Of a stretch of DNA of 64,000 nt, positions 14,793 through 53,699 are shown piece after piece. Made by a program: the position numbers and the translations under genes. The notes below the pieces were generated by a model. The model was not told the DNA's origin and ran no database searches. It saw only the letters and a program-made list of their open reading frames with translations. The DNA lies in NCBI GenBank assembly GCA_044356215.1, contig JBIKWQ010000002.1:25824-89823 (forward strand). Reading direction: 5' to 3'. How positions within the stretch are numbered: position 1 is the first letter of the stretch; each line of letters begins with the position of its first letter. Origin of the DNA: Bdellovibrionota bacterium (GTDB lineage Bacteria; Bdellovibrionota_C; UBA2361; OMII01).

Positions 14793-15221
14793 GTGTTAAA
14801 GAGTATGCTCGATCTAGGCCCGCTAAAGAACGCGTTGTCTCAACTTGAGGATGGTCTGCGGCTAGCTGAGCAGCCTGGAGCAGCGGAGATAGTTAGAGAT
14901 GGCGTGATCCAGCGATTTGAATATACCTATGAGTTGTGCTGGAAGATGTTACGACGCTACCTTGAAATGACTGAAGACGATCCCCAGCGAGTGGACCAAC
15001 TTTCATTTGGGGATCTGACACGTCTAGGTTTTGAGCGAGGGCTGCTGCGCTCAAGTTACGATGTATGGGCTGGGTTTCGTCAAGCGAGAGGAACAACTAG
15101 TCACACCTATGACAGGTTAAAGGCTGAGCAGGTGTATAGCGTAATCCCAGCTTTTTATCTTGAAGCACGTTTTTTATTCGATCATCTGAGGCAAGCGATT
15201 TCTAGTCAGGTGGGTAAATGA
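14793..15221 (+). CDS. hepT: HEPN toxin / nucleotidyltransferase substrate-binding protein (HI0074 family)
   Basis: GVIQRFEYTYELCWKML and RX4HXY motif (RGTTSHTY). Overlaps the downstream MNT gene (ATGA). Confidence 0.9.
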   Translation: MLKSMLDLGPLKNALSQLEDGLRLAEQPGAAEIVRDGVIQRFEYTYELCWKMLRRYLEMTEDDPQRVDQLSFGDLTRLGFERGLLRSSYDVWAGFRQARGTTSHTYDRLKAEQVYSVIPAFYLEARFLFDHLRQAISSQVGK

Positions 15222-27913: not shown

Positions 27914-30900
27914 ATGGCACCTAAGATATCTTTACCGATAACCTCGCAATTAGGGTTTTTAGCAAAGGTCCTGCGTTCCGCCCTTGGGATCCTTGTGGCG
28001 TTGATGAGTGTGATAGGAGTAGGGATGGAGGCATCCGCCACTACCCCTACTGCGAGTCCGACAGTTGGGTCGGGAAGCTCCAGAGATTGGCGAGTCTTCG
28101 TGAGTAGGACTGCCAAGCAGGGAAATTTCGGAGGCATCGCGGCAGCCGATAGCATCTGTCAACAGGAAGCGACGCAGGCAGGTCGTACAGGAACCTGGAT
28201 TTCCATTCTTTCTGATCAGAGCCAGAGCGCCAAAGACAGAATTATAGCCTTAAATGGCGGCGTCGATGTGGCGACTGAGATCCGCGATCTCTCTCCGGAG
28301 AGACGGCTCGTGGCGGTAGGAACAAGCGGAACCAAGGGTCTGTGGAGTGGTGGACTGATCAACCGAATTGAATTTCACGCTGATTCCGTGAATACCTTTA
28401 GCTCTTTGGTCTGGTCAGGAACTAATAAGGATGGTTCAAAAGATGGCCGAGAAACCGCTTGTAACAATTGGACAGCGATTAACCGCGGAGTAGAGAGCGG
28501 ACGCACAGATCGTATAGATGCCACCTGGATAGCCATATACAATGGTGAGGGATCTCCGGGAAACTCCTGTGCTAATTCCGGGCGGTTCTACTGTATCGGC
28601 AAGACAAATGACCCGATCAGCGCACCGGCGACCCCGACCTTTACCTATACACCTACGGTGCATCCGACGATCACCGCGACATCGACCTCAACTCCGACGC
28701 CGACCTTCACCGCCGTCAAGACATCAACTCCTACTTTTACGCCGACGTGGACATTCACTCCAACTAATACGGCAACCCCTACACCAGCGGCTGCTGGGCG
28801 CGTTTATTCAGGCAGCTCACTAATTATGGGGTATCTTGCTCAAGGCTCCTCTGCGCCTGTTGGAGAGTATACCAACTGTTATGCCGCAATCGGTAATTCC
28901 TTGTCTCTCGAGATCTCAAATACGGGGAGCATCTACCCTGAGCTTGATGTCAAGATCGCGAATGGTAATATCTCCATAGTTACAGATAATACCAGAAATC
29001 TCGCTGCCAACGCGGCATATGTCTGTATCAAGGGTGCTAACGGCACAGTGGTAGATGCTGATGTTAAGGCAGGCATGCAGTGGTGGGCAGGTGGAGTTCA
29101 AACAGGTTCGTTTAAGATCGCCGCTGGGCTACAGTGCGTACTAAGCGTGTCAGGTTTTGATAAGAGGCGTTCATCCTCCGGTGGTGGGATCGGAACGATG
29201 AGAGCCAGCTACGACTCAGCTAGCGGTAACGTTACTGTAACCGGCGAGTCTTATGGGTACGTTATCGGAGTTAGCTACATCTGCGTTGATCCTAAGTCGA
29301 CTAACAAGACACCAGTACACATCGGACAGTACGCGCGTGATGTTGCCGGAGCTAGCGCTTTGTTAGCAAAGGACCTGCAAGTTAGCCCTGGCATCAACTA
29401 TTTCTCAACTAACGGCTGCAGCAGTGACGCTATTGGACAGCATCAGTACAACAGAGATTCCGGAATGGCTTATAAGGGTGGAGCAACAGGTTGCGGCACT
29501 GGTGTGGCATCCTACAGCTACCTAGGAGTAGGCGGAACTATCGCAGGAACTCCAAGTTGCCGTGACGGCAAAGACAACGATGGCGACGGGCTAGTTGACT
29601 TCCCAGCCGACCCAGGTTGCTTAGACGTCAACGATGTCGACGAGTCTAACTCATTTGACCCAGGCGGAGCTCAGTGTAACGACGGGCTCGATAACGACAA
29701 CGATGGCTTAGTCGATGCCTACTCTGAATTAGCCCCAGATAACGGAGAGGTGCTGAATCTAGCTCCAACCGGTGATACCGCTCTAGAGTTCCGACGTGTC
29801 GTTGAGGCTACAGTTAAGGCCAAGAAATTCCCAGGAATGACAGCGCCGGGTAAGGTTCTAATCAACGGATCTCAAGAGGTGGAGGCTGGTATTCTGCGCT
29901 CTGTCTCCACAGGAGCCGACTTATGGGCCGATGCAGGCAGTGATAACTCTACCGACGGAATCATGACCGACTCTTTGAGTCAGGTTTGTCGGGTCCTCGG
30001 CTATAAGGATTATGTTTCGTCGACCTGCCGCGATGGCGAGCGTTCGTCTAGATATCCTAACGGTAAGTGTAACTTCCACGGTACCTCTGATAACCGTCAG
30101 TGGGCCTTTGAGAACGGCAACTTCATCGTGAAGACAGCTGATCCTAAGTACAAAAAGACGTGGGTCACCTCGATTCAGTGTAAGAACAAGCTCTCGGCTT
30201 GTAACGACGGCTGGGATAACGATGGCGATGGCAAAGTCGATTCGGCAGATGATGGTTGCGCTAACGCAAACGACAATAGTGAGGGCAAGCCAGATACCAA
30301 GTGCTCTAGCCCAACATCAACCACTGAGTTTGAGCAGTGCCGTGATGGTAAGGATAACGACGCCGATGGCTTGATCGATCAACAGGATCCGGCGTGCCGT
30401 ACGATCTTCGACAATCCGAATACTTACAATCCTAGCTTAGATAACGAGAGCGCTAACTTCGGTAAGGTAGAGCTCATCGGGCCAAATGGTACGGTGCGCG
30501 ATGGAAGACCAACTTATTCATGGAAGCCTTTAGCCGCTAGCGCGACTCGTTACCTAGTAGAGGTGTATCGTGGAGCTGAGCTGCAGTACTCATTCTACTT
30601 CGATGGTACAAGTGTAAGACCAGACCTACCGCTACAGTTCGGAGTTGAGCATAACTTCAGAGTAAGAGGGGTTGACGCTAACAACAATCCGATTAGCTTC
30701 TGGAGTGATCCAATGAAGTTTACTATCGCGCTAGCTGGTCCGGCCATGGTGCGTCCAAATGGAGCAATTAATGAGCGCAGGCCAACCTTCGAGTGGACAG
30801 CGATCCCGTTCGCTCTGCAATACGAGCTGCAGGTTTTCGATAAAGCGACAAAAACGCTGGTTCTGCAGGGCTTCTCGACAACCACCTCGCTAGTATCGAC

Positions 30901-32539
30901 TGTGGATCTGATACAGGGCAAAACCTACCAGTCGTTCGTGCGGGTTGTTAACACAAACAGATCTACTGCTGGAGACTGGAGCACGCCGCTAGATTTCTTA
31001 GTGGTTGAGCCAACGGCTACGCCGACAGCTACGGCCACAGAGACGCCTACGGCGACATTTACCGCGACCGCGACTTATACCGCCACGGCAACGCATACCG
31101 CTACAGCTACGGAAACTGCCACGGCGACCTACACCGCGACCGCAACAGTGACTCACACAGCTACGGCGACATCAACGGTAACGATAGCGCCTACTGATAC
31201 CGCCACGGCGACGCCGACGGCAAGGAGTACTAGTACGGCGACTAATACGCCAACAAACACGCCGACGGATACGCCGACGGACACGCCAACAAATACTCCG
31301 ACGAATACGCCGACGGTAACACCGACGAATACTCACACGGCGACACAAACGGCAACGTACACTGCTACAGCGACGTATACTGCTACAGCGACGTATACCG
31401 CTACAGCTACTTACACCGCTACTGCAACCGCTACGGCAACCGCGACGGAGACGGCAACCGCGACTCCGACTAACGAGCCGCCACTGTTAACTCTCGGAGT
31501 GGAGTGTGTGAGCAAAAACGTCGATGGAACGAGAACGGCATACTTCTCCTATAACAACCTTACAGGAGGGGATGTCACTGTGGCCAACAACACGGCCCTC
31601 GGAACTATCAACGAGTTCAAGGCGACTACAACGACTTCCGCTACGCCGCCTGCTACCTTCAAGTTAGGCCAGGCCAAGGGAGCGGTCGTAGTTCCATACT
31701 CCAGTGGCTCTGTGACCTGGACAGTTAAGGCTCCGAAGAGCTTGCGTTCGGAAGCTATAGCATCCGACTCAAGCCCAGAGTGTCCAGTGGTTCAACCTCT
31801 AGCCGACTGTCGCGGCTACGAGAGTGGAGTGCTCAAGGTTAAGCTTGGTTACAGTAATCCGGGCTCATTCGAGCAGAGTGTTCCTGTGGGTAAGCTAAAC
31901 AGCTTCACCTCTGGAAGCACAGATCGTGGCCAGCCCAATAGATTCTTCTCGGGATTAAACTCGTCGGTGTTCCAGATCGCTTTGTCTGATCCGAACGAGA
32001 AGGTAACATGGAGTGTAAACGGCAAATCCGTCGTTATCGATAACACCCTAAAGGTCTGCTCAGGACAGTGCGTTGACCTACCGGCCGGCACTATCAAGGG
32101 TAATCTGGATAGAATAGCTGGAGAGCTGTCGGGTGTGGTTAACCGCGCGGCGAGCCTCCTCGCGAGTGTCAAAGATAGGAACATGAATGGGCGTACATCG
32201 CCAAGAGATAGAACTGATGCGGGGCGAGCTAGAAAGAAAGCCACTTATTACGAGGGGCTTGCTAAATCGCTCACTATTCAGTTCCCAGCGGTAATCAAGA
32301 CGTGTCCAGAGGCGCCAGCATTCTGCTCGACGGTAGATCGTTTGGGAACGATAGAGACGCTCAAAGGACTCTACGCGAATCAGCGTAATACCGTGATGCG
32401 TGTGATCGCCCGTGTCCAGTTCAGATCTGGCACGACACCGACCCGCAGACAAAAGCTGATAGTACAAGCCAAGGAGCTAGAGCAGCAGGGATTAGCGGAG
32501 CTTGCTAAGTTACCGCGCTTCTCAACTGAGTGTAAGTAG
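27914..32539 (+). CDS. Large modular secreted/surface protein (DUF1554-like domain, CxDGxDNDxDG Ca-binding repeats, Fn3-like pair, Thr-rich stalks)
   Basis: [15 protein letters not shown]...FYC (DUF1554-like), four CxDGxDNDxDG repeats, RPTYSW and RPTFEW domains, TPT/TAT linkers, Cys-containing C-terminal domain. Confidence 0.85.
31010..31470 (+). repeat. Coding Thr/Ala/Pro tandem repeats, including an 18-bp unit
   Basis: ACTGCTACAGCGACGTAT twice exactly (31361-31396) plus degenerate copies encoding TATATY. Also 12-bp TNTP/TDTP units. Confidence 0.85.
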
Positions 32540-35769: not shown

Positions 35770-36153
35770 CTACGCTAGGCATCTTTTGTAAAACTTAGCG
35801 ATTTCTTTATCGGCAGTGATTATTGTGGCGTCTAGGTCCTGGGCGAGTGCTACTATTACTCGGTCGGCTGGGTCTCTGTGTTCCCAGGGAAGCAAGATGC
35901 TTTTTGCCCACATTCGCGCGTCAACAGCCATCAACACGAAATCTGAGCAACTCGTTACTCTCGAGATATAGTCCTCGTAATTTGTCCCGAGATCGATCTT
36001 CCCACTTTTCCATTTCACTCCGACCTCCCAGACCGAGATGGAGCTTATCGTGAGATGGTCCGCCTCAGAGAGCGCTTTGTGCGCCCGCGGCGATAAGCTT
36101 GATGGATCTAGAGTTAGCCAGAGGAGGGCGCATGTGTCTAAAACTAGATTCAC
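35770..36153 (-). CDS. vapC: PIN-domain toxin VapC
   Basis: LVLDTCALLW, SSISVWE, HRDPADR, ITAD. GTG start overlaps the antitoxin stop. Confidence 0.92.
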   Translation of the reverse strand: MNLVLDTCALLWLTLDPSSLSPRAHKALSEADHLTISSISVWEVGVKWKSGKIDLGTNYEDYISRVTSCSDFVLMAVDARMWAKSILLPWEHRDPADRVIVALAQDLDATIITADKEIAKFYKRCLA

Positions 36154-36383
36154 AGCTCGTCCCATTCATCTTTGGTAGTCTCCAAGGCGGCATCTTTTGA
36201 TATCCGAGCTCGCTCTCTCAGGTTGCCAAACAATTCGTCGACGTTCTTTCCCTCTGTGCAGGGAATTATCTTCAGGACAGGTTTGCCGAAATCAGTGACT
36301 ATGAGCTCGCCCCCCTGTTCCTGGAGCTCCCGAAAGTACTCAAACATCTTGGCTTTTAGAACACTCTTACTCACCCGTTTCAT
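36150..36383 (-). CDS. Phd/YefM-family antitoxin
   Basis: VSKSVLKAKMFEYFR...GELIVTDFGKPV. Lies upstream of vapC. Confidence 0.88.
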   Translation of the reverse strand: MKRVSKSVLKAKMFEYFRELQEQGGELIVTDFGKPVLKIIPCTEGKNVDELFGNLRERARISKDAALETTKDEWDEL

Positions 36384-44670: not shown

Positions 44671-45693
44671 ATGAAGTTTATAGATGAGGCAGCCATAGAG
44701 GTGAAAGCGGGCAAGGGTGGCGCCGGCTCGCGTAGCTTTCGCCGCGAGAAATTCGTGCCATTAGGTGGCCCCGATGGGGGAAACGGTGGTCGCGGCGGAT
44801 CTATCATCCTTAAAGCTGATCAGAGTGTGCATACGCTGCTAGATTTTAAGTTTCAGGCCGTTTGGCAGGCTAAGGGCGGAGAGTCCGGATCGGGAGCAAG
44901 AAAGGATGGTAAGGCCGGTGATGATGTAGTTATTAAGCTACCTGTAGGCACGCAGGTCTTCTCTTACAACGCCGAGACTAAAGATGTGGGCGATCTAGTT
45001 GTCGATCTAGACGCCCCAGACCGCGAGTTTATCCTCGCTAAAGGTGGTCGCGGAGGAAAGGGGAACTCATTCTTCAAGACCTCGACTAATCAGGCCCCAG
45101 AGTACGCGCAGCCAGGGGAAGAAGGTGAGGGAGGATCTTATCTTCTTTCATTAAAGTTAGTGGCTGATGTAGGTCTGGTAGGTTTGCCTAACGCTGGAAA
45201 GTCTACGCTGATCTCTAGAATATCCGCCGCTCGACCGAAGATCGCTGACTATCCGTTTACAACACTCGTTCCTAATCTGGGGGTAGTTCAGGCTAAGGGT
45301 GGGAGGAGCTTTGTTGTAGCTGATATCCCGGGACTAATACCTGGAGCCAGCGAGGGGAAAGGGCTTGGAATTCAATTCTTAAAGCACGTAGAGAGAACCA
45401 AGATCATCGCGCACCTTCTTGACCTGACTCAGATCCGTGAAGATGGAAGCGAAGCCGATCTCCTTGAGGTGTTTACCTGTATCAACCAGGAGCTTAGGAA
45501 TTTCTCACCAGAGGTTGCTGAGAGAAGACAGATAGTTGTTTTAACCAAAGCTGACGCGGTTTCAGAGACAGATAAGATTGAGCACTACAAGGGAGTGTTT
45601 CAAGAACGCGGATACGAGGTCGCTGTGATCTCAAGTGTTGCTGGGCTCGGGATTGACGACCTGATTGAGAGGTTCGCTCGAGTTCTGAGCTAA
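44671..45693 (+). CDS. obgE: GTPase ObgE/CgtA
   Basis: FRREKFVPLGGPDGG, GLPNAGKST, YPFTTL, DIPGLI, TKAD. Confidence 0.97.
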   Translation: MKFIDEAAIEVKAGKGGAGSRSFRREKFVPLGGPDGGNGGRGGSIILKADQSVHTLLDFKFQAVWQAKGGESGSGARKDGKAGDDVVIKLPVGTQVFSYNAETKDVGDLVVDLDAPDREFILAKGGRGGKGNSFFKTSTNQAPEYAQPGEEGEGGSYLLSLKLVADVGLVGLPNAGKSTLISRISAARPKIADYPFTTLVPNLGVVQAKGGRSFVVADIPGLIPGASEGKGLGIQFLKHVERTKIIAHLLDLTQIREDGSEADLLEVFTCINQELRNFSPEVAERRQIVVLTKADAVSETDKIEHYKGVFQERGYEVAVISSVAGLGIDDLIERFARVLS

Positions 45694-47718
45694 TCTCTCG
45701 ATAAATAACCACTTTGGCTTAGTGGACCATGGCGCGTTGGGATCTAGTATTGATCCTAATAGCTTGCCGTAGGTCGGTTGTCCTTCGCAGATCTCCTTTA
45801 GTTCATTTCCCTCAGAGAGGCTAGTTGGACATGTGGCTACGAGCACATCTCCCTCCGGAATCTTCGCATAAACCTCTGAGGTCTTTGTTTGCGGAGAGTC
45901 GATTACCTCAAGTGAAGGAAGCATTTTACGCATCTCCGCTGAATTAAGCGCCACTGATGAGCATGTTCTTAAGTGTGGCGGAAAATCCTGGCTGTTTATA
46001 ACAAAGTGTAGGTTGCGAGTCCTTACCTGCTCAAAAACTGGATCGTTCACAAGCTTTCGAGCATTAAAGAAATCGTGGCACGCCACGCAGAGCTGAGTGT
46101 GTAGCGAGTTGTCGATCAGATAGCGAAACTCGATCGGAGCCTTGGCTATACAGAAACCCAAGAATAAAAGAGGCGATATAATTGAGAGCGCGCCACGACG
46201 TTGCTGGAAGGCGAAGATTGATAGCACTAATATCATTAGTAGCAGATCTGTCGATACCGCGCGCCTAAACGCCGATACATCTTGAGCCAACAGAAACGGC
46301 GAGAAAGCTCCAAAAAGCATCAGCGCTGATACGATAGTAAAGTTTCTCTTAAGCGCGTTAGAGCTGCAGATTCCGATGATAATCGCGAGGCAAGCGCAGA
46401 CAACTAAGTATGGAGCGATCGGAGAGAGGATCCCTAGCTGCCCAAAGAACCAATCGACTTTTTCGAGGATCTCCCCAGGTGTCCTGCGCCAATAAACAGA
46501 GGCGTTAACTCCTTCAGGTCGGCCAGTCCCCCACCAGATCGGCATGTCGACATCGTGTATCGAATTTACCTTTGTTGGATAGTCGTTAACGTTTTTAATG
46601 ATCTGCTCAGGCCGTGGAGAGATAAGGATCTGTGCCTTAAAGCGCGTCGTGTCTCCAGCAAAAACAAAGTAGAGCAGCGAAGCGAGCACCAAAACAGAAG
46701 GCACGATGCTTGTGGCGATGCGTGCAAGTGATGAGGCTCTAATAGGAAACGCCCCGCGCGAAAGTAAGATAACTCCAGCGATACATGAGCCGATTACCCA
46801 CGGGATGCGTGCCGCGGAATATGAGTACAAATTATAGAACACGCTTATCGCGTTAAATATCCCTAGGAACACGGCCTCTTTGCCCGACAGAGGAGCTGAT
46901 CTTCTAGTCAGCGCCCATATACACAGGAAAAAGATCGAGCCCGTTGAGAGTATCGGCATTCCAACAACGGACGACGCGATAGCTCCTGAAAGCAGCCAGC
47001 GATCGCTCCAGCAGGCGAGTAGAAGTGCCCAACCCCATACTGCGCCAAGTGTCCACTGAGCCGCCAATGCGGCGAATGCTAGGCCAAAAGATACCAGTAG
47101 CATTGAGATAAGCCCCGTGGCATTGAGGCTTGGATAATCAAAGAATGAGTTGATAAATGAGCGCAGGAGCACCATCACCATACTCATGTCTGAGTGAACA
47201 GAGCCGTAATAGAAAAACGCCATCGAAGGCGCGGGGTTGGTTGAATCCTGAACGTAAGATGGCGGGTATGAGGTGAAAGGGCTAATAAGGAAAAAGAAAT
47301 TGAGAGAAGCTAGTGTGTAAAGAAAGAACGAGCTAAATGGACTTGATTGCTTGGGTTCAATCTCGGTTTCTTTGATCGAAAAGGCTAGCAGCCCTAAAGC
47401 CGCCGCGACCGCGACAAAAATAATAGTCGATGGGAACATCGCTCCAAAGCTCTGAATCGGCCACAGGCGCCACAGAAACGCAGCGATAGATGCGGGTAGC
47501 AAAAGTAGAGGGAGCACTTTAAAGCGGGTTGTTTTGCTGATTAGAAGCGCTAGCGCCGCGCCCAGGGTTATGCCGAGGATCGCCGAAGATAGCTCACGTT
47601 CAGAGAGGAGGTTAGTGACCTTTGTAACCGGTAGTTCGCTCCAGCGGCTTAAAAAGAGTCGCAGGTTAGCGAATGTAAGAAGGAGTAGGGCGCCCCAGAT
47701 AATTAGCTTCTTTTTCAT
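45631..47718 (-). CDS. Polytopic membrane protein, possibly GT-C/ArnT-like glycosyltransferase
   Basis: Many TM segments plus a soluble Cys-containing C-terminal domain. Family assignment is a guess from architecture. Confidence 0.6.
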   Translation of the reverse strand: MKKKLIIWGALLLLTFANLRLFLSRWSELPVTKVTNLLSERELSSAILGITLGAALALLISKTTRFKVLPLLLLPASIAAFLWRLWPIQSFGAMFPSTIIFVAVAAALGLLAFSIKETEIEPKQSSPFSSFFLYTLASLNFFFLISPFTSYPPSYVQDSTNPAPSMAFFYYGSVHSDMSMVMVLLRSFINSFFDYPSLNATGLISMLLVSFGLAFAALAAQWTLGAVWGWALLLACWSDRWLLSGAIASSVVGMPILSTGSIFFLCIWALTRRSAPLSGKEAVFLGIFNAISVFYNLYSYSAARIPWVIGSCIAGVILLSRGAFPIRASSLARIATSIVPSVLVLASLLYFVFAGDTTRFKAQILISPRPEQIIKNVNDYPTKVNSIHDVDMPIWWGTGRPEGVNASVYWRRTPGEILEKVDWFFGQLGILSPIAPYLVVCACLAIIIGICSSNALKRNFTIVSALMLFGAFSPFLLAQDVSAFRRAVSTDLLLMILVLSIFAFQQRRGALSIISPLLFLGFCIAKAPIEFRYLIDNSLHTQLCVACHDFFNARKLVNDPVFEQVRTRNLHFVINSQDFPPHLRTCSSVALNSAEMRKMLPSLEVIDSPQTKTSEVYAKIPEGDVLVATCPTSLSEGNELKEICEGQPTYGKLLGSILDPNAPWSTKPKWLFIERLAQNSSEPLNQVVNPEPSNT

Positions 47719-47865: not shown

Positions 47866-50178
47866 TCAGTATCCCCCCCCAACCGCTAAGATCCGCAGCA
47901 ACCCCTCCAGATCCGTAAACTGCCGGGCCGAGTCAAACATTACGCTCTTATCTGTTGACGCGCCCTCTGGGCCGCACATTAAGGCGAATTGAACGCGTCT
48001 CTCACGGGCTACTAAGATCGCGTCCCTGACAAAAGTGCCACCGCCGATAAATACGATCATACCGTTACGATCCGCCACGTAATCCACTAATTGATGCGGC
48101 ACCGTAAAGAGACCTCCCTCAAGAGGGATCACATGCGTCAGCCCAGGTGTAAAAGATTGAGTTGTTTGGTCGGCCTGTACCGTTGCGCTAATCAGGGCCA
48201 GTCGATTATCCCTTAAGAATTTGGAGTTGCGCTCCTGCACCGCATGCGAGAGCGCGGTTGTGATCCCCGCATTCTTTGGGCGGCCGATCATCATATATGT
48301 TGTTTCAGGATCGATCGCCTCGACTAAACCGTTAATCAGATCTCGTATCACGCTCTGTTGCAGTCGTGATATTCGGTCCCACCACCTGGCGCCCGACGCG
48401 CCTAGAATTAAAAGCGGCCTCTTACCGCTCGTAGCCGCAGCTATGCTCTCTGATGAGTAATTAATACCCTGAGCTCTTAAGTGCTGTTCAAAGTTTCTCC
48501 GAGCTGAATCATCTCGCGCATGATCCTCTAAAACCAGCGGGGGGAGCGCGGATATTTTTGAGCCCACTAGCTCAATGAAATTAGCCTTTAATTTATTTAA
48601 CTTGCGAGCGAACCTAGCCGCCTCTCGATCTGTATGCGCCACTTCGTGCCGAACGATCGTCTCGAAATGGTGCTCTTTTAGTCCCGCGAATGAAGCTGTG
48701 TCATCGAGCTGCCAGATGTCGGTTTGAAAGAGACCTCCACCGTCCGAGCAAACCACAAAGGGGATGTCGAGATTTAAGCATTTTACCATCTCGAGCTCTT
48801 CCGCCGTGTCGATATTATTAAGAGCTAAGTTAGAGTCGGGATTAAATTCGATCATCACCAGATCGCGTTTAGCCAGATCGCTCGCTACTCTTAACGCCTC
48901 ATCGTCTAATCCGTGAGCGGCGTGTCCGATCCTGACCCGCATATTGTATTTCTGAGCTAGCAGGAGCGACTCTCTGACGTTACTAAAGTTTTTGCGATTC
49001 TCGCCCGCATGAATACGAAGAGTAAATTCAGGATCGTTGTCTGCCGCCCATGAGGCGATCTCTTTTATATGTGGTTCTAAGTCACCTATCTTGTTGTCCT
49101 CAAAACCTAGGAAATCAACACCAACAATGTAAGGGCTTGCGCCAATAATTTTAAGCTTCTCAACCTCACGGGCTAAAAGCGCGGGTGGAAGATTCCTTGG
49201 AAGACCGGCTAAAAAACGCAGCCTTACACCAGTGTCTCGCTCAATCGCTGGGAGTGACTGATGTAGCAGCTTGATGTAATCCGCTGTGAGAAGCCCCCCT
49301 GAGGTTGCTGTGATCTCGGCGTATTGAACTCCTTGATGCGCGTACTCCTCGGCATATTTTAGAAGTAGCTCATAAGCTATCTTAGGCGATTTAGTGATCG
49401 GTGTTCTAAAGCGATAAACAGAAACTTCAAGATCGCCAAAGGTTACTTGCCGATCGGGTGGGATAGACATAGCCGCAGCCAAGATCTTTCTGCTCTTAGT
49501 TGATAGACTATCGAGCGGCACAGCATCTTCCTCCTTTGGAATTCGCCCGATCTCTGGGCCGTCTGTCGGAGGATAGAAAAATCGCGGGGTTCTCTCGATA
49601 CGCGCGGTATCATAGGGGATCTTTAAAACATCTAGCAGCCGTGTTGGATAGGGAACCTTGGCGTGCAAAGCGATCGCCATTAGCCCCTTGGCTGACACCT
49701 GACCCGAGCTGTGGGTGTGGAGGTCTGTGCGCAGGACTGGCGGCTTAAGAGCCGGTCTGGGGTAGGGGAGCCATCTGTGAAGTTTCTCGTTGGCTAACAT
49801 GCGGGTCTCAAAAACCGTTAGCTTCTGAAAAACTTCACCGTATTCGACACCGCGCGCCGTGACTCGGTACTTACCAAATAGCTGGCCATCTCTATCGCGC
49901 GAGCCGCCCAAGAATATCTCTATCTCAAAGAGCGCTCCAGCGCTTGGAGGTAAGGTTAAGGAGATTGCTGGTGTCGAATCAGCTCTTCTAGAGAATTTAG
50001 CGGGGACTCCCGCTATTTTAAAATTGATAAGGGTAACCAAGTGGTGCTCTACACGGCCAGTTGTGTTTACTGGGCCGACTATACGGGCTGAAAGGTGGCG
50101 CGACCCAGGTTTATATACGAAGAGGATCTGATAATGGTACCCCCAGTCTAGGGGGTGCTGGATGGAAACTAGGGGCAT
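47866..50178 (-). CDS. Adenosine/AMP deaminase-family amidohydrolase fused to a C-terminal SLOG-like domain
   Basis: DLHTH, GVQYAEI, VGVDFLGFE, RIHAGE, RIGH, EFNPDSNLAL, CSD. C-terminal LLILGAS...IVFIGGGTF...GPEGAS pattern. Confidence 0.8.
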   Translation of the reverse strand: MPLVSIQHPLDWGYHYQILFVYKPGSRHLSARIVGPVNTTGRVEHHLVTLINFKIAGVPAKFSRRADSTPAISLTLPPSAGALFEIEIFLGGSRDRDGQLFGKYRVTARGVEYGEVFQKLTVFETRMLANEKLHRWLPYPRPALKPPVLRTDLHTHSSGQVSAKGLMAIALHAKVPYPTRLLDVLKIPYDTARIERTPRFFYPPTDGPEIGRIPKEEDAVPLDSLSTKSRKILAAAMSIPPDRQVTFGDLEVSVYRFRTPITKSPKIAYELLLKYAEEYAHQGVQYAEITATSGGLLTADYIKLLHQSLPAIERDTGVRLRFLAGLPRNLPPALLAREVEKLKIIGASPYIVGVDFLGFEDNKIGDLEPHIKEIASWAADNDPEFTLRIHAGENRKNFSNVRESLLLAQKYNMRVRIGHAAHGLDDEALRVASDLAKRDLVMIEFNPDSNLALNNIDTAEELEMVKCLNLDIPFVVCSDGGGLFQTDIWQLDDTASFAGLKEHHFETIVRHEVAHTDREAARFARKLNKLKANFIELVGSKISALPPLVLEDHARDDSARRNFEQHLRAQGINYSSESIAAATSGKRPLLILGASGARWWDRISRLQQSVIRDLINGLVEAIDPETTYMMIGRPKNAGITTALSHAVQERNSKFLRDNRLALISATVQADQTTQSFTPGLTHVIPLEGGLFTVPHQLVDYVADRNGMIVFIGGGTFVRDAILVARERRVQFALMCGPEGASTDKSVMFDSARQFTDLEGLLRILAVGGGY

Positions 50179-50212: not shown

Positions 50213-50276
50213 ACCGAAAAATGGATAGGCGCTTTTGTGTAGATATTCACGCGCTTAAGATTATGTTATTTAGCCG

Positions 50277-53200
50277 CTACTTAGGCAAAAGAGCATCAAA
50301 TTGCGCCTTAGTGATATCCGGAAAGGAGTCACGTCTTAGGGAGCTCAACCTAACCAGATCCTTAGTAAAAAAAACACCTCCACTGGTAAGCTGCAAGATG
50401 ACATCAGGGTCACCCGCGGCAATATTAGAGATGAAGCCTTCCGTGGAACGCAACCTAGGCATTTCAAAATTCTCAAGCCAATCGTAGATAGGCGCCGCAG
50501 TTGGGCAGTCCGAGTGCCCCAGAGTGGTCAGAACTTGCAATAATTTAGGTTTGATTTGGGACGGTTTAGACGAAAACGGTCTTCCAGAATAGAGGCCCTC
50601 ATCTTTAGCGGTCGGAAAGTAAGTTGTCGCTATCTGTTTGTACTTATCGGGAATAACGGAGATCCAGTGGTTATAAAGCTTACTCACGTATTGTTCATCT
50701 AAACCGCCTCGCTCTAACAGCGCGGACATAAGGATCTTAGCGCGAGTCGGAGTCGGAAGCTGACTCAGATTAGATCTTGTTATCTCCGATGTCTCGTAGG
50801 TCTTCATTTTTTTTGCCAGCGTTAAATTCCGCTCTGATAGGCTTTTTTTAATAATATTTAAATGACTGGGGAGTAATTCGAGTTCATTTGGCGAGTAGAG
50901 CTTAAGTTGCGAGATCGTGAATATTCCATATCTAAGCAACTTGAATACTACTTCTTTGTCCTCTACAATTTCGGATACGTAACTGTGTTCTTTTAATGAG
51001 GCAGCTTGTTCCTCAGCAGTCCAGTCACTTAACTTCCTTATGTATCCATATGCAGGATTACTGTCCTGTGAAATCAGACCAAGAGAGGAGTTCACCGTCT
51101 GCCTAATTGCTTCCTTGGTTACCTCTCTAGCCTTAGCTATTTCTTCTAAAGTTTGCCCTACTAGGAAGCGACATTCGCATATCTCCCGACGGCCGTTTGG
51201 TAAAGCTCTAAACCACTCCTTTAGTAAAACCTGCACCGTTTGGAGGTTTTTATATCGCGTATCACTATGTTGTTGAGGTACCTGATCAAGGAGCGAGTAA
51301 TCAGAATCGTTACCACGTGGCGCGTTTAAGGATATTGGCCCTTTAATGGACCGTTTCGCTCTGTATTCACGGATCAGTCGTTGTGCCGTGGTCGAGTCCT
51401 GATATGTTTTCGCCAATACGCTTTCTCGCTCCTCAGTGGTCAAGCTGCGTTGTTCTTTTTGCACTTCTCGAGCTATTGCCTCGGCGAATTGTCTCTGCCT
51501 TTTAACAGATTCTGATCCCGCTTCGTCCCGTTGTAACTTGCTTTTAATCCATTTGAACGCGTAGGTGCTAAAAGCGCCGCGAGTGCCGTCATAAAGCTCG
51601 ACGGCTCGCAAAAGTCCCTGAAATCCAGCCCCTTTTGCCTGTTTAAGCCTTTGCTTGCTGTTCTCATCAACGTTTGTGCTCATCTGACTAATAGCCTTTC
51701 CTATTAGGTTCTTGTTCTTGCGAGCGATACTTCTCCGAAGCAACTCAGAGTGTTGATACAGCCTAACGAGGTGCCTTTTAAGCGCTGATAAATCATCCTT
51801 ATCCTCCGGGATAAGATCCATCAACCGGTTATACTCGCCCTGGCGATAATCGTACGGCATGCGAAGTTTTTCGAGATACTCGCGGGTGATAGACATCTGC
51901 GCGTACAAAGCTTTAAGCGCCTCGTTTCTCTGGCCATTGGCCTCGGTTGACTCGGCCACCTTATTTATCAACAAATTAGTCTGGGATAATAACTTTTTGC
52001 AGTCGTCTTTAAGAGGGCCCCAGAGATTTGAAGCATGATTTATTGCAGTAACCTCGGTACCGTTGTTACTTACTTGATGAGGTAGAGATTTAAGGTGTTC
52101 ATAAAAGTTTTGAGATTCTGAAGTGATTAGCTTGAGCAGCTCAAGTTGCACTGGCCAGAGAGATAGTAGCGACCTCCATAGGCTGGCTTCAGCATTATAG
52201 AATCCTTCCCAAAGTTCAGGGTTTCTGAGACTCTCGATTGATTTAAAGTCAGGTTTTTTTTGAAGCAGCGCGTTGAGTGCTTTGTCTTCAGGCCACACAG
52301 GAGTAAAAGGTTTCAAGGCATCTGGAGGGGGGAGCGCAGCGCTCTCCGTTCCAAAGATCGAGAATAGCTCATTTGTAACGGGTGCTTGGGCGGTGACTAC
52401 CTCACCCTGCTCCTCTGAGTTAAACGAATTCGTAAAGTCGCGAAAAATCCATTGGACTGGTGAAGCTGGGCCCGATCCTTCTTTAGTTTCCTGAGAGTCG
52501 CAGCGGAATAGGTTGAGCTGCAGTGTCATTGGCAGGACATGTGAACTGTCGGTACCTCTGTAGCGTGCTAAATCGCATCCTCGGACTTCTTTTTGGTGGG
52601 GGATCGAGTCGTTTCGCACTTCGAACAAGCGTCCATAATACTCCAGATCCGCAAACGCTTTCAGAGTCTGCGCGTCTGATACTATTGGGGCAATAATATC
52701 TAACCTTAGTTCGCTCGTTTCTAATTTAAAGCCATGATCTAAAAGTGACTTGTTTATGGTGTTAAGAGTCTCGTTGGCCGCCGGACTGCGGCCAACGCCG
52801 AAGATATAACTCGGCAAAACCATGACACCGCCTGGTGCGATCAAGTGAGAGATAAGAGGAATATGAATCGTTGATAGATCGACGTCGTTCCAAAGACCAA
52901 TGTGAGGTAGGAGGGCTAGATGATAAACTCCTCGTCGGCCGCTGAGGTATTTGCTAGCTTCAGATAAAGAGAGATTCGCGTAATCTATTCGGGGGTCTGG
53001 TTTGTCACCGTAAATCAAGTTCACGCTGCGCGCTAGCGCTGCAAATTTCGCTGGCGCCTTGTCCAGTAAAGTGGCCGCGCGGGCATGGGCGAGCAGAGGC
53101 AAGATTGTGTCGCCCCCATTTGATTCAAAACTCAAGACCGCGGCTGCCTTTTGCTCCTTCAATAAACCTGATAGCGCGGGTCCTAGCAGGATCGATTCCA

Positions 53201-53699
53201 TTAATTGCCGAGGTAGGGATGGATCCAGTAACACCCGGTCTGTGTTGATGTCCGGACTTATGTCATCGTCTCGCAGGGAGAGGCTGTGCCTAAGTATCCG
53301 TAAGCTCTCGACAGGCTTTGATTCTATCTGCTGAAAAAACGCGTAGATAAGTGATTCGTCAAACTTAAAGTTTTGTAGGTGTGTGACCAGGTCTTGTTTA
53401 AGTGGCTCACGTAATGGGCTGCTCAAATCAGAGGTATTAAGCTGCGAGACTAAGTATGTAGGGAGAAGGTGAGCTGCTAATTCGAAAGCTCTCACCGCTC
53501 CAGTAGTGACATCTTCAAGGCGCCGCTTGTTGTTCTCAATTAGAGCTGAAAGACACTGGTGGAGATCTAATTGAATTGAAGTAGTGGCTATTCTCTGTTT
53601 ACAGAGCGAGTCCAGACCACCGCCGCATGAGGTATAAGCTACTCCGAAACTGTTAGTCTCTGTAATCAACACAGCTAATCCTGATTCCCCGGTTAGCAC
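50277..53699 (-). CDS. Giant multidomain sigma70-family-like protein (1140 aa)
   Basis: Region 2 GFQGLLRAVELYDGTRGAFSTYAFKWIK, region 3.2 PISLNAP..DYSLLD, region 4 QTLEEIAKAREVTKEAIRQ. Long unexplained N- and C-terminal regions. Confidence 0.8.
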   Translation of the reverse strand: MLTGESGLAVLITETNSFGVAYTSCGGGLDSLCKQRIATTSIQLDLHQCLSALIENNKRRLEDVTTGAVRAFELAAHLLPTYLVSQLNTSDLSSPLREPLKQDLVTHLQNFKFDESLIYAFFQQIESKPVESLRILRHSLSLRDDDISPDINTDRVLLDPSLPRQLMESILLGPALSGLLKEQKAAAVLSFESNGGDTILPLLAHARAATLLDKAPAKFAALARSVNLIYGDKPDPRIDYANLSLSEASKYLSGRRGVYHLALLPHIGLWNDVDLSTIHIPLISHLIAPGGVMVLPSYIFGVGRSPAANETLNTINKSLLDHGFKLETSELRLDIIAPIVSDAQTLKAFADLEYYGRLFEVRNDSIPHQKEVRGCDLARYRGTDSSHVLPMTLQLNLFRCDSQETKEGSGPASPVQWIFRDFTNSFNSEEQGEVVTAQAPVTNELFSIFGTESAALPPPDALKPFTPVWPEDKALNALLQKKPDFKSIESLRNPELWEGFYNAEASLWRSLLSLWPVQLELLKLITSESQNFYEHLKSLPHQVSNNGTEVTAINHASNLWGPLKDDCKKLLSQTNLLINKVAESTEANGQRNEALKALYAQMSITREYLEKLRMPYDYRQGEYNRLMDLIPEDKDDLSALKRHLVRLYQHSELLRRSIARKNKNLIGKAISQMSTNVDENSKQRLKQAKGAGFQGLLRAVELYDGTRGAFSTYAFKWIKSKLQRDEAGSESVKRQRQFAEAIAREVQKEQRSLTTEERESVLAKTYQDSTTAQRLIREYRAKRSIKGPISLNAPRGNDSDYSLLDQVPQQHSDTRYKNLQTVQVLLKEWFRALPNGRREICECRFLVGQTLEEIAKAREVTKEAIRQTVNSSLGLISQDSNPAYGYIRKLSDWTAEEQAASLKEHSYVSEIVEDKEVVFKLLRYGIFTISQLKLYSPNELELLPSHLNIIKKSLSERNLTLAKKMKTYETSEITRSNLSQLPTPTRAKILMSALLERGGLDEQYVSKLYNHWISVIPDKYKQIATTYFPTAKDEGLYSGRPFSSKPSQIKPKLLQVLTTLGHSDCPTAAPIYDWLENFEMPRLRSTEGFISNIAAGDPDVILQLTSGGVFFTKDLVRLSSLRRDSFPDITKAQFDALLPK

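Follow-up and report, generated by a model that had tools for sequence, protein, structure and literature searches.

A chromosomal adenosine-deaminase-fold protein with a C-terminal SLOG domain, a candidate ligand-regulated nucleotide deaminase

Ligand-gated enzymes of the adenosine deaminase (ADA) fold have so far come from CRISPR systems, as Cad1/CAAD, and from RADAR. Ligand binding turns on the conversion of ATP to ITP in Cad1, and the RADAR protein RdrB, an ADA-fold protein of ~800 amino acids, is described as deaminating ATP and dATP. Here we describe a gene that joins an ADA barrel to a C-terminal SLOG domain, found in a 64,000-nucleotide stretch of DNA (the window) from a Bdellovibrionota bacterium (contig JBIKWQ010000002.1 of assembly GCA_044356215.1). 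This ADA-SLOG gene lies on the reverse strand at positions 47866–50178, begins with ATG, ends with a stop codon at 47866–47868 and, from the list of open reading frames (ORFs) and its translation, encodes 770 amino acids. The literature that we searched holds no description of an ADA-SLOG fusion; an earlier mention in the SLOG classification of Burroughs et al. 2015 is possible. We favour, with a probability of about one half, a stand-alone deaminase of adenine nucleotides that is regulated through SLOG by ADP-ribose (ADPR) or a related nucleotide and that works in nucleotide and NAD–ADPR metabolism. We infer the substrate, the ligand and the control of catalysis by that ligand from the lines of evidence set out below.

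The protein is composed of three domains: an all-β N-terminal domain (residues 1–116), the ADA barrel (residues ~117–530) and the C-terminal SLOG domain (residues 585–770). The full-length AlphaFold2 model, built on a 40-sequence alignment, has a mean predicted local distance difference test score (pLDDT) of 90.2 and a predicted template-modelling score (pTM) of 0.89. The (β/α)8 barrel, delimited by Pfam and structural alignment, is encoded by positions 48589–49830 (this and all further features of the gene are on the reverse strand) and contains a conserved entry helix, FETRM (49798–49812). Pfam A_deaminase (PF00962) covers residues 254–511 with an E value of 6e-20 and 72 bits against a cut-off of 27, and the best Foldseek match of the barrel has an E value of 1.9e-12. 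In VIA-align the top match is human ADAL (8qch; Z 31.6, root-mean-square deviation (RMSD) 3.0, 312 aligned residues), with Plasmodium ADA (Z 30.2), bacterial ADA (6n91; 29.7), Cad1 (29.4), MAPDA (29.1), adenine deaminase (3rys; 28.9), ADA2 (28.0) and snail AMP deaminase (27.8) close behind. An earlier sequence-only reading of this DNA had named ADA, RdrB and Cad1 as the folds to compare; ADA and Cad1 are recovered, whereas RdrB is neither among the PDB sequence matches nor among the top 50 fold matches of the barrel.

The active site carries the complete set of ADA/AMP-deaminase motifs that had been recognized from the sequence (HxH, HAGE, RIGH, NPxSN and SD), and translation bears out their coordinates. 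The HxH metal motif is HTH (H154 and H156; 49711–49719), which aligns with the HRHLDG of ADA and is invariant in 40 of 40 sequences. It is followed by an invariant HAGE containing a metal ligand, H390, and the catalytic E393 (49000–49011), aligned with the HAGE of ADA structures; by RIGH with the catalytic H419 (48922–48933), aligned with the ADA RIGH and invariant at G418 and H419; by NPDSN, read from the translation (48829–48843); and by SD with the invariant metal ligand D479 (48742–48747), next to a glycine, G480, that is kept in at least 90%. Taken together, H154, H156, H390, E393, H419 and D479 are invariant across 40 homologues with identities down to 29%, which is far beyond chance.

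Two neighbouring positions depart from the classical enzyme in alignments to hidden Markov models. Where ADA has HxHLDG, the protein has HTHSSG (HTH(S/L)(S/A)G in the family), and where ADA has (S/T)DD, it has SDG, with glycine in place of the second aspartate. Both altered positions, the aspartate of HxHLDG and the second aspartate of (S/T)DD, contact substrate in classical ADA. The NCBIfam equivalog model for adenosine deaminase, TIGR01430, scores 64.5 bits, below its cut-off of 216.55. Because of this score and the two changes in substrate contacts, we regard the protein as an enzyme of the ADA superfamily that is not a canonical Add. A basic motif, YRFRTPITK (49390–49416), corresponds by its place in the Pfam profile (position 56) to the substrate lid of ADA and is invariant at R258, P260 and K263 in the alignment; the motif is a putative phosphate binder. 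The altered contacts and the invariant basic motif (R258/K263) would suit a substrate that is not simply adenosine, and a phosphorylated one can reasonably be proposed.

The C-terminal domain (47869–48426) was delimited by an AlphaFold2 model of residues 570–770 and by fold searches. This model (pLDDT 92.3, pTM 0.90) was built on an alignment, A2, of 37 sequences of the SLOG domain alone, which come from several phyla and were taken from homologue loci. Searched with VIA-align against 48,161 PDB representative chains with no prefilter, it returns SLOG proteins in all of the top 26 rows (Z 16.6–10.3), and the next fold (GT-B and others) reaches at most 9.3. The SLOG matches comprise TM1055 (1rcu; Z 16.6), the Moco carrier protein (15.6), TRPM5 (15.4), TRPM2 (15.0, 193 aligned residues), DprA (14.0), LOG (13.8), the ThsA SLOG (12.6), PpnN/YgdH (12.1), YpsA (11.5) and ShosA (10.3). 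Foldseek ranks the N-terminal domains of TRPM8, TRPM2, TRPM5 and TRPM4 first (E 3e-5 to 1e-3), with 34 matches at E≤1e-3. At the level of the predicted structure, the SLOG fold of the C-terminal domain is confirmed, and the comparison with SLOG, LOG and ThsA that the sequence-only reading had proposed for residues ~585–770 comes out in its favour, ThsA included.

The glycine-rich pattern that had suggested SLOG is likewise real, conserved as it is in the 37 sequences of A2. G593, W600, G638, G713 and G739 are invariant, and G632, G706, G712, D719, A740 and S741 are kept in at least 90%, giving the loop patterns GASG..W, G(R/G)xKxxG, GGGxFxRD and GxEGAS. In the window's protein these are the GASG loop after strand 1 (48391–48402), which contains G593 and is followed by W600; the GRPKNAG loop after strand 2 (48265–48285; G632 and G638), for which other clades have GGT-NxG, as in LSDAT/TRPM; the GGGTFVRD loop (48022–48045), with G712, G713 (A2 position 144) and the acidic D719, which we take to be the counterpart of the GGxGTxxE loop in other SLOG proteins; and the GAS loop after the last core strand (47956–47964; G739, A740 and S741). 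Because these glycine-rich loops of the nucleotide pocket, set at the C-terminal ends of the core strands, show little or no variation between phyla, a conserved ligand site is indicated.

By sequence, the domain appears nearest to the TRPM-type (LSDAT) clade of SLOG, represented in Pfam by PF18171 and PF18139. LSDAT_prok ('SLOG in TRPM, prokaryote') matches 13 of the 37 A2 members, with a best E value of 1.1e-4, and LSDAT_euk matches 7 of 37; these matches fall below the Pfam cut-off of 25.4 bits in full-length scans. That cut-off is exceeded by two proteins that carry this SLOG clade but are more distant (P0149, 32.7 bits; P0241, 27.1 bits). As a mark of SLOG, the glycine pattern is thus upheld by fold and by weak LSDAT matches in relatives; the window's own protein offers no such confirmation at the sequence level. 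Membership of the LOG/PpnN phosphoribohydrolases, which are marked by GGGxxGLM and PGGxGTxxE motifs and a catalytic arginine, was considered and rejected, because the Pfam LOG model PF03641 misses the gene, its sole match in the window's genome (G000) being a separate canonical LOG gene (C74), and because hhalign of A2 against an alignment of LOGs (A3) gives a probability of 0.6%. The alternative first raised for this gene, a LOG-type phosphoribohydrolase coupled to a deaminase, finds no support in these two results.

TRPM2-type channels combine an N-terminal LSDAT/MHR1-2 SLOG with a C-terminal NUDT9-homology domain, and the SLOG domain is reportedly one of the ADPR sites of TRPM2. Entry titles in the PDB describe TRPM2 in complex with ADPR. 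An extra C-terminal NUDIX domain is present in 8 of 58 full-length relatives of the ADA-SLOG protein (loci L044, L047, L052, L053, L062, L065, L070 and L081), drawn from Planctomycetota, Actinomycetota, Myxococcota, Rhodoferax and Clostridia, and its REx2EE box is intact. The best sequence matches of this domain are of the ADPR type: NrtR-like 3i9x, 2fml and 3gz5, the NUDT9H domain of a TRPM2 chanzyme (5.8e-5) and human NUDT9 (7e-4). It also matches the NCBIfam models for NtrR, an ADPR-responsive repressor, and for the NadM-Nudix ADPR pyrophosphatase, in all cases below cut-off. Genes of NAD salvage adjoin two of the NUDIX-bearing loci, a NAPRTase at L065 and a cytidylyltransferase-like plus NAD-kinase protein at L047. 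One of the 58 relatives has an added nucleoside 2-deoxyribosyltransferase-like domain. Some Cad1/CAAD genes are paired with a Nudix hydrolase that is described as mitigating metabolic toxicity. Under either role, an action on ADPR or on a deaminated nucleotide, the NUDIX fusion suggests that nucleotides, not nucleosides, are the compounds handled.

From 1.84 billion representative proteins, a profile of the SLOG domain retrieved only 369 matches at E≤1e-3, counted as clusters at 50% identity. Nearly all are 750–900 amino acids long with the domain at ~550–800, the ADA-SLOG layout. Thirty-seven matches of unusual length were scanned for other families, giving ADA in 18, NUDIX in 6, a zeta-toxin-like P-loop kinase with SLOG in 2, a combination of ADA, SLOG, PGDYG and Fic in one protein of 4275 amino acids, and no family at E≤1e-4 in 12. 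The kinase pair, P0149 and P0190 (~1024–1111 amino acids), carries the kinase at the N terminus, ahead of a domain of the same SLOG clade. This clade, joined as it is to varied enzymes, looks like a portable regulatory module, and because it is found on other enzyme heads a sensor-plus-enzyme logic for ADA-SLOG is reasonable.

The protein is most likely a ligand-regulated metabolic deaminase rather than a weapon of phage defence. In the mechanism that we propose, a chromosomally inherited ADA-fold zinc deaminase would act on an adenine compound, most likely a phosphorylated one, such as AMP, ADP or ATP, or else ADPR and the AMP that its breakdown yields. The SLOG domain would bind a nucleotide-derived ligand, most plausibly ADPR or a close NAD-derived relative, and in its bound state would tune the deaminase. 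Deamination would yield inosine nucleotides, tying NAD/ADPR turnover or adenylate status to purine balance. By analogy, ADA-SLOG may be built as Cad1 is, from a sensor domain and an ADA, with a different sensor.

A bolder version of this mechanism, which we consider doubtful, would make the family a soluble bacterial counterpart of the ADPR-sensing module of TRPM2, with an LSDAT-type SLOG that is joined in some members by a NUDT9-type NUDIX domain, wired to a deaminase in place of a channel. ADPR or another product of NAD+ breakdown would act through SLOG to trigger deamination of ATP, ADP or AMP, as a one-gene switch for dormancy or abortive infection that would need no dedicated signal synthase. 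The destruction of NAD+, by stress or by phage-triggered NADases, could in that case collapse the adenylate pool through a single gene.

Several observations weigh against a metabolic deaminase regulated by ADPR. The fold ranking of the barrel gives no substrate, since the ADA-family subtypes are tied at Z 27–32, and the missing second active-site aspartate could reduce activity. Sequence searches on the window's own SLOG domain are blank, both in Pfam at E≤10 and with the A2 profile against PDB sequences. The window's protein has no NUDIX domain, its chain ending after SLOG, and the case for ADPR draws on distant relatives (24–30% identity in the SLOG domain) and on the analogy with TRPM2. 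The NUDIX fusion need not mean ADPR at all, given the Nudix pairing of Cad1/CAAD, and may instead serve to act on the deaminated nucleotide.

The distribution of the gene adds to these points. Within the window's genus it is patchy, present in 16 of 24 genomes, and it occupies at least five distinct neighbourhoods there; the window query did not find it in 16 genomes from the order's other families. Patchiness and a shifting neighbourhood are also what would be expected of an accessory or mobile gene. Some relatives keep company that suggests conflict: one protein of 4275 amino acids (P0199) unites ADA, SLOG, PGDYG and Fic in a single chain, and plausible conflict neighbours are a Fic gene (PDC-S04/SoFic, E 1.8e-114) at L046, a reverse transcriptase at L073, PDC-S01 at L021 and a piece of a restriction enzyme at L049.

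Across bacteria, the family is broad. There are 267 full-length homologues at E≤1e-3 in a protein collection clustered at 90%, with conserved length, and 507 confirmed relatives on contigs sampled at one genome per species. Members occur in metagenome-assembled genomes (MAGs) of freshwater Bdellovibrionota or 'Proteobacteria' (70–75% identity), in Alphaproteobacteria/Rickettsiales MAGs and in Myxococcota, Planctomycetota, Saccharibacteria, Ignavibacteriales and many gut Clostridia. Matches to the DNA itself among public sequencing runs are lake-water metagenomes, with no RNA run among the matches listed. A clade of gut Clostridia (L066–L090; 825–860 amino acids) has a longer N-terminal region, with ADA beginning at ~residue 315, and a C-terminal domain that has diverged beyond what a BLAST search with the SLOG domain of the window can match (E 0.005 or worse). 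One genome of the window's genus, G017, holds a second, distant paralogue of ADA-SLOG type (contig C7, 2–1210), a 722-amino-acid open frame at a contig end with 30% identity over residues 355–760.

The surroundings of the gene are those of ordinary chromosomes. The window belongs to the core chromosome: it holds flagellar genes together with those for MinCDE, PolA, Obg, the glycine cleavage system and FolD. At 81 homologue loci gene order is maintained only within close lineages and there is no conserved partner, the most widespread neighbour cluster being an ABC ATPase at 14 of 81. Pfam assigns the 98 immediate-neighbour families to a housekeeping mix (DUF72, TGT, PBP, PrkA, RadA, PheT, PGK, Rpe, RNR, NAPRTase, Rho, RNase J and Spo0A, among others). 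Neither at the 81 loci nor within the window is there a TIR, cyclase or Cas10 gene, and for the window this agrees with the sequence-only reading, which had seen no signal synthase in it. When 150 neighbours were compared with PADLOC, 11 matched at E≤1e-8, mostly through generic ATPase, helicase or methylase domains. The ADA-SLOG protein has no PADLOC match at E≤0.1, and tblastn finds no homologue in either the phage collection (50,697 records) or the plasmid collection (72,556 records).

These surroundings bear directly on the idea, first put forward from the sequence, that the protein is an immune sensor-effector. A phage-triggered messenger, for instance a cyclic ADPR isomer or ADPR from NAD+ breakdown, would bind SLOG and switch on the deamination of ATP and dATP, depleting adenylates and aborting infection as Cad1 and RdrB do. 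The structural match to the ThsA SLOG speaks for this, as do a barrel that Cad1 matches as well as any ADA does and a layout of sensor domain and ADA that parallels Cad1. So do the patchy occurrence in the genus, the variable neighbourhood, the Fic-linked subclade with its SoFic/PDC-S04 neighbour and 4275-amino-acid fusion, and the fusion of the same SLOG clade to zeta-toxin-like kinases. Against it stand the lack of any TIR, cyclase, Cas10 or other synthase beside the 81 loci or in the window, the PADLOC, phage and plasmid results, and neighbours that are core genes (PheT, PGK, RadA, Rho and Spo0A). In addition, several genomes have no other ADA-family gene, and gene order around ADA-SLOG persists within lineages, as vertical inheritance would produce. 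With no conserved neighbour, TIR, cyclase or Cas10, the immune proposal is left without the genomic context by which such systems are defined. The sequence-only reading had itself held that homologues confined to housekeeping contexts would speak against an immune effector, and the homologues surveyed sit almost only in such contexts; we therefore consider this role unlikely.

A Fic-linked subclade deserves separate mention. At L046 (559–4668) the ADA-SLOG protein carries a weak PGDYG domain and is followed by the Fic gene. This subclade, together with P0199, is a possible conflict-system branch of the ADA-SLOG family.

It is also improbable, in our estimate, that the protein is simply a constitutive housekeeping deaminase of adenosine, adenine or AMP, with SLOG and the N-terminal domain serving only assembly or stability and binding no signal. 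The housekeeping context would suit such an enzyme. So would the finding that G000 and five further genomes of the genus (G002, G009, G015, G016 and G022) have no PF00962 gene besides ADA-SLOG, whose distribution is partly complementary to that of another ADA-family gene: of the eight genus genomes that have no ADA-SLOG, six carry a different ADA-family gene of ~400 amino acids, and the other two are 82–87% complete. This complementarity is suggestive only, as related genomes are not independent. Set against a constitutive enzyme are the SLOG glycine-rich loops, kept (near-)invariant across phyla at 22–30% overall identity, and the attachment of the same SLOG clade to other enzymes; a plain adenosine deaminase also sits poorly with the equivalog score and the two altered substrate contacts. 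The ~400-amino-acid gene (G006:C174, G018:C38, G024:C65 and others) is a divergent member of the ADA family that spans only Pfam positions ~90–316. It is found in every genus genome of at least 90% completeness that has no ADA-SLOG, and in about half of the genomes that have it.

Least of all do we expect a bifunctional two-step enzyme, in which a catalytic SLOG (an N-glycosidase of the LOG/PpnN type, or an ADPR-processing activity) would feed the deaminase, for example from AMP through adenine to hypoxanthine: the strong fold matches to LOG, PpnN/YgdH and TM1055 (Z 12–16.6), the acidic D719 retained in the GGG loop, the match of adenine deaminase 3rys to the barrel and the one relative with a nucleoside 2-deoxyribosyltransferase-like domain would agree with it, but it is opposed by the LOG-model and profile–profile results above, by the absence from A2 of a conserved Arg/Lys motif after strand 3 or 4, and by a nearest sequence clade, LSDAT, that is known from the ligand-binding domains of TRPM.

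The N-terminal domain (residues 1–116; 49831–50178) is modelled as all-β, with ~9 strands and one helix, and has no assigned family: no Pfam match was found at E≤10, and a search of the ESM Atlas gave no usable match. Its conservation at E<1e-30 is confined to the closest clades (23 of 79 ORFs). The sequence-only reading had counted about 140 unexplained residues ahead of the barrel, and the stretch without a family before the ADA motifs does measure ~116–140 residues. A helical linker (residues 531–584; 48427–48588) joins the barrel to SLOG, with model helices at 534–543, 558–569 and 576–583 and a pLDDT that drops to 65 at ~551–560. In the 98-base-pair gap upstream of the gene, a consensus scan picks out a promoter-like site, TTGCCT-17-CATAAT (50260–50288, reverse strand), as weak evidence; the upstream region has 7 such sites against a shuffle mean of 10.1, that is, fewer than the shuffles.

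Both flanking genes were considered as partners and rejected, as they adjoin ADA-SLOG at 0 of 89 homologue loci, the sole match being one weak sigma-region. The upstream neighbour (50277–53699, reverse strand) encodes a soluble protein of 1140 amino acids in which sigma-70 region 2–4 (residues 692–873) lies between large N- and C-terminal regions that have no family. Its resemblance to MzaA is weak: NCBIfam NF041931, whose cut-off is 800 bits, matches with an E value of 7.9e-12 and 44.8 bits, and PADLOC MzaA with 2e-4. The downstream neighbour (45631–47718, reverse strand) encodes a polytopic membrane protein of 695 amino acids that has 10 or more hydrophobic segments and matches no family; GT2, hexapeptide-transferase and GDSL genes lie near it, and it is probably a membrane enzyme of envelope glycans. 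Elsewhere in the window, a 1541-amino-acid ORF (27914–32536, forward strand) matches no Pfam family at E≤1e-6. A PIN-domain gene (35773–36165, reverse strand) and a nucleotidyltransferase-substrate-binding (HEPN-like) gene (14793–15218, forward strand) are probable toxin–antitoxin components and are the sole conflict-type genes seen in the window.

If the ligand-regulated deaminase that we propose is borne out, the family would extend the principle of ligand-gated ADA enzymes to a SLOG sensor. The family spans many phyla, with 369 clusters at 50% identity, in ordinary chromosomal settings. Regulation by ADPR or another nucleotide would, if true, place a further point of control between the turnover of NAD+ and the purine pools. 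ADA-SLOG enzymes could also supply ligand-controlled deaminases.

Among described systems, RADAR differs from this locus in that no RdrA ATPase adjoins the gene and no ATPase is conserved beside its homologues, and PADLOC gives no RdrB match at E≤0.1. Canonical Add (TIGR01430) and ADAL/MAPDA share the fold and the same catalytic histidine, glutamate and aspartate set; unlike Add, ADA-SLOG is ~115 residues longer at the N terminus and 240 at the C terminus, besides its lower equivalog score and two different motifs. ThsA of type I Thoeris, a SIR2-SLOG protein, likewise couples a SLOG sensor to a nucleotide-degrading enzyme (Z 12.6 to both 7uxt and 7uxs). In ADA-SLOG the effector is an ADA and there is no SIR2 domain, no ThsB/TIR gene adjoins any locus and PADLOC returns no match; the ThsA SLOG is also not the nearest SLOG clade.

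Cad1/CAAD (PDB 9c67, 8z3k and 9mmw) resembles ADA-SLOG in combining a nucleotide-sensing Rossmann-like domain with an ADA barrel (Z 29.4, RMSD 2.9, 317 aligned residues). The pairing of some Cad1 genes with a Nudix hydrolase finds a parallel in the NUDIX fusions of some ADA-SLOG relatives. The sensor of Cad1 is an N-terminal CARF domain, whereas here it would be a C-terminal SLOG, and the N-terminal all-β domain has no CARF match. Cad1 is found in type III CRISPR loci; here, no cas genes occur in the window or in the homologue neighbourhoods, the context is one of housekeeping, and sequence similarity to Cad1 is weak (profile E 1.5e-3 to 0.07).

TRPM2-type channels differ from ADA-SLOG in that the latter is soluble and has a deaminase in place of the ion channel. 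Their SLOG is the closest to that of ADA-SLOG by Foldseek, by VIA-align (TRPM5 and TRPM2) and by the LSDAT matches of relatives, and the NUDT9/NrtR-like NUDIX domain of 8 of the 58 relatives repeats the channels' pairing of SLOG with NUDT9. That the two domains also occur together in proteins other than ion channels is relevant to how the TRPM2 sensing module arose.

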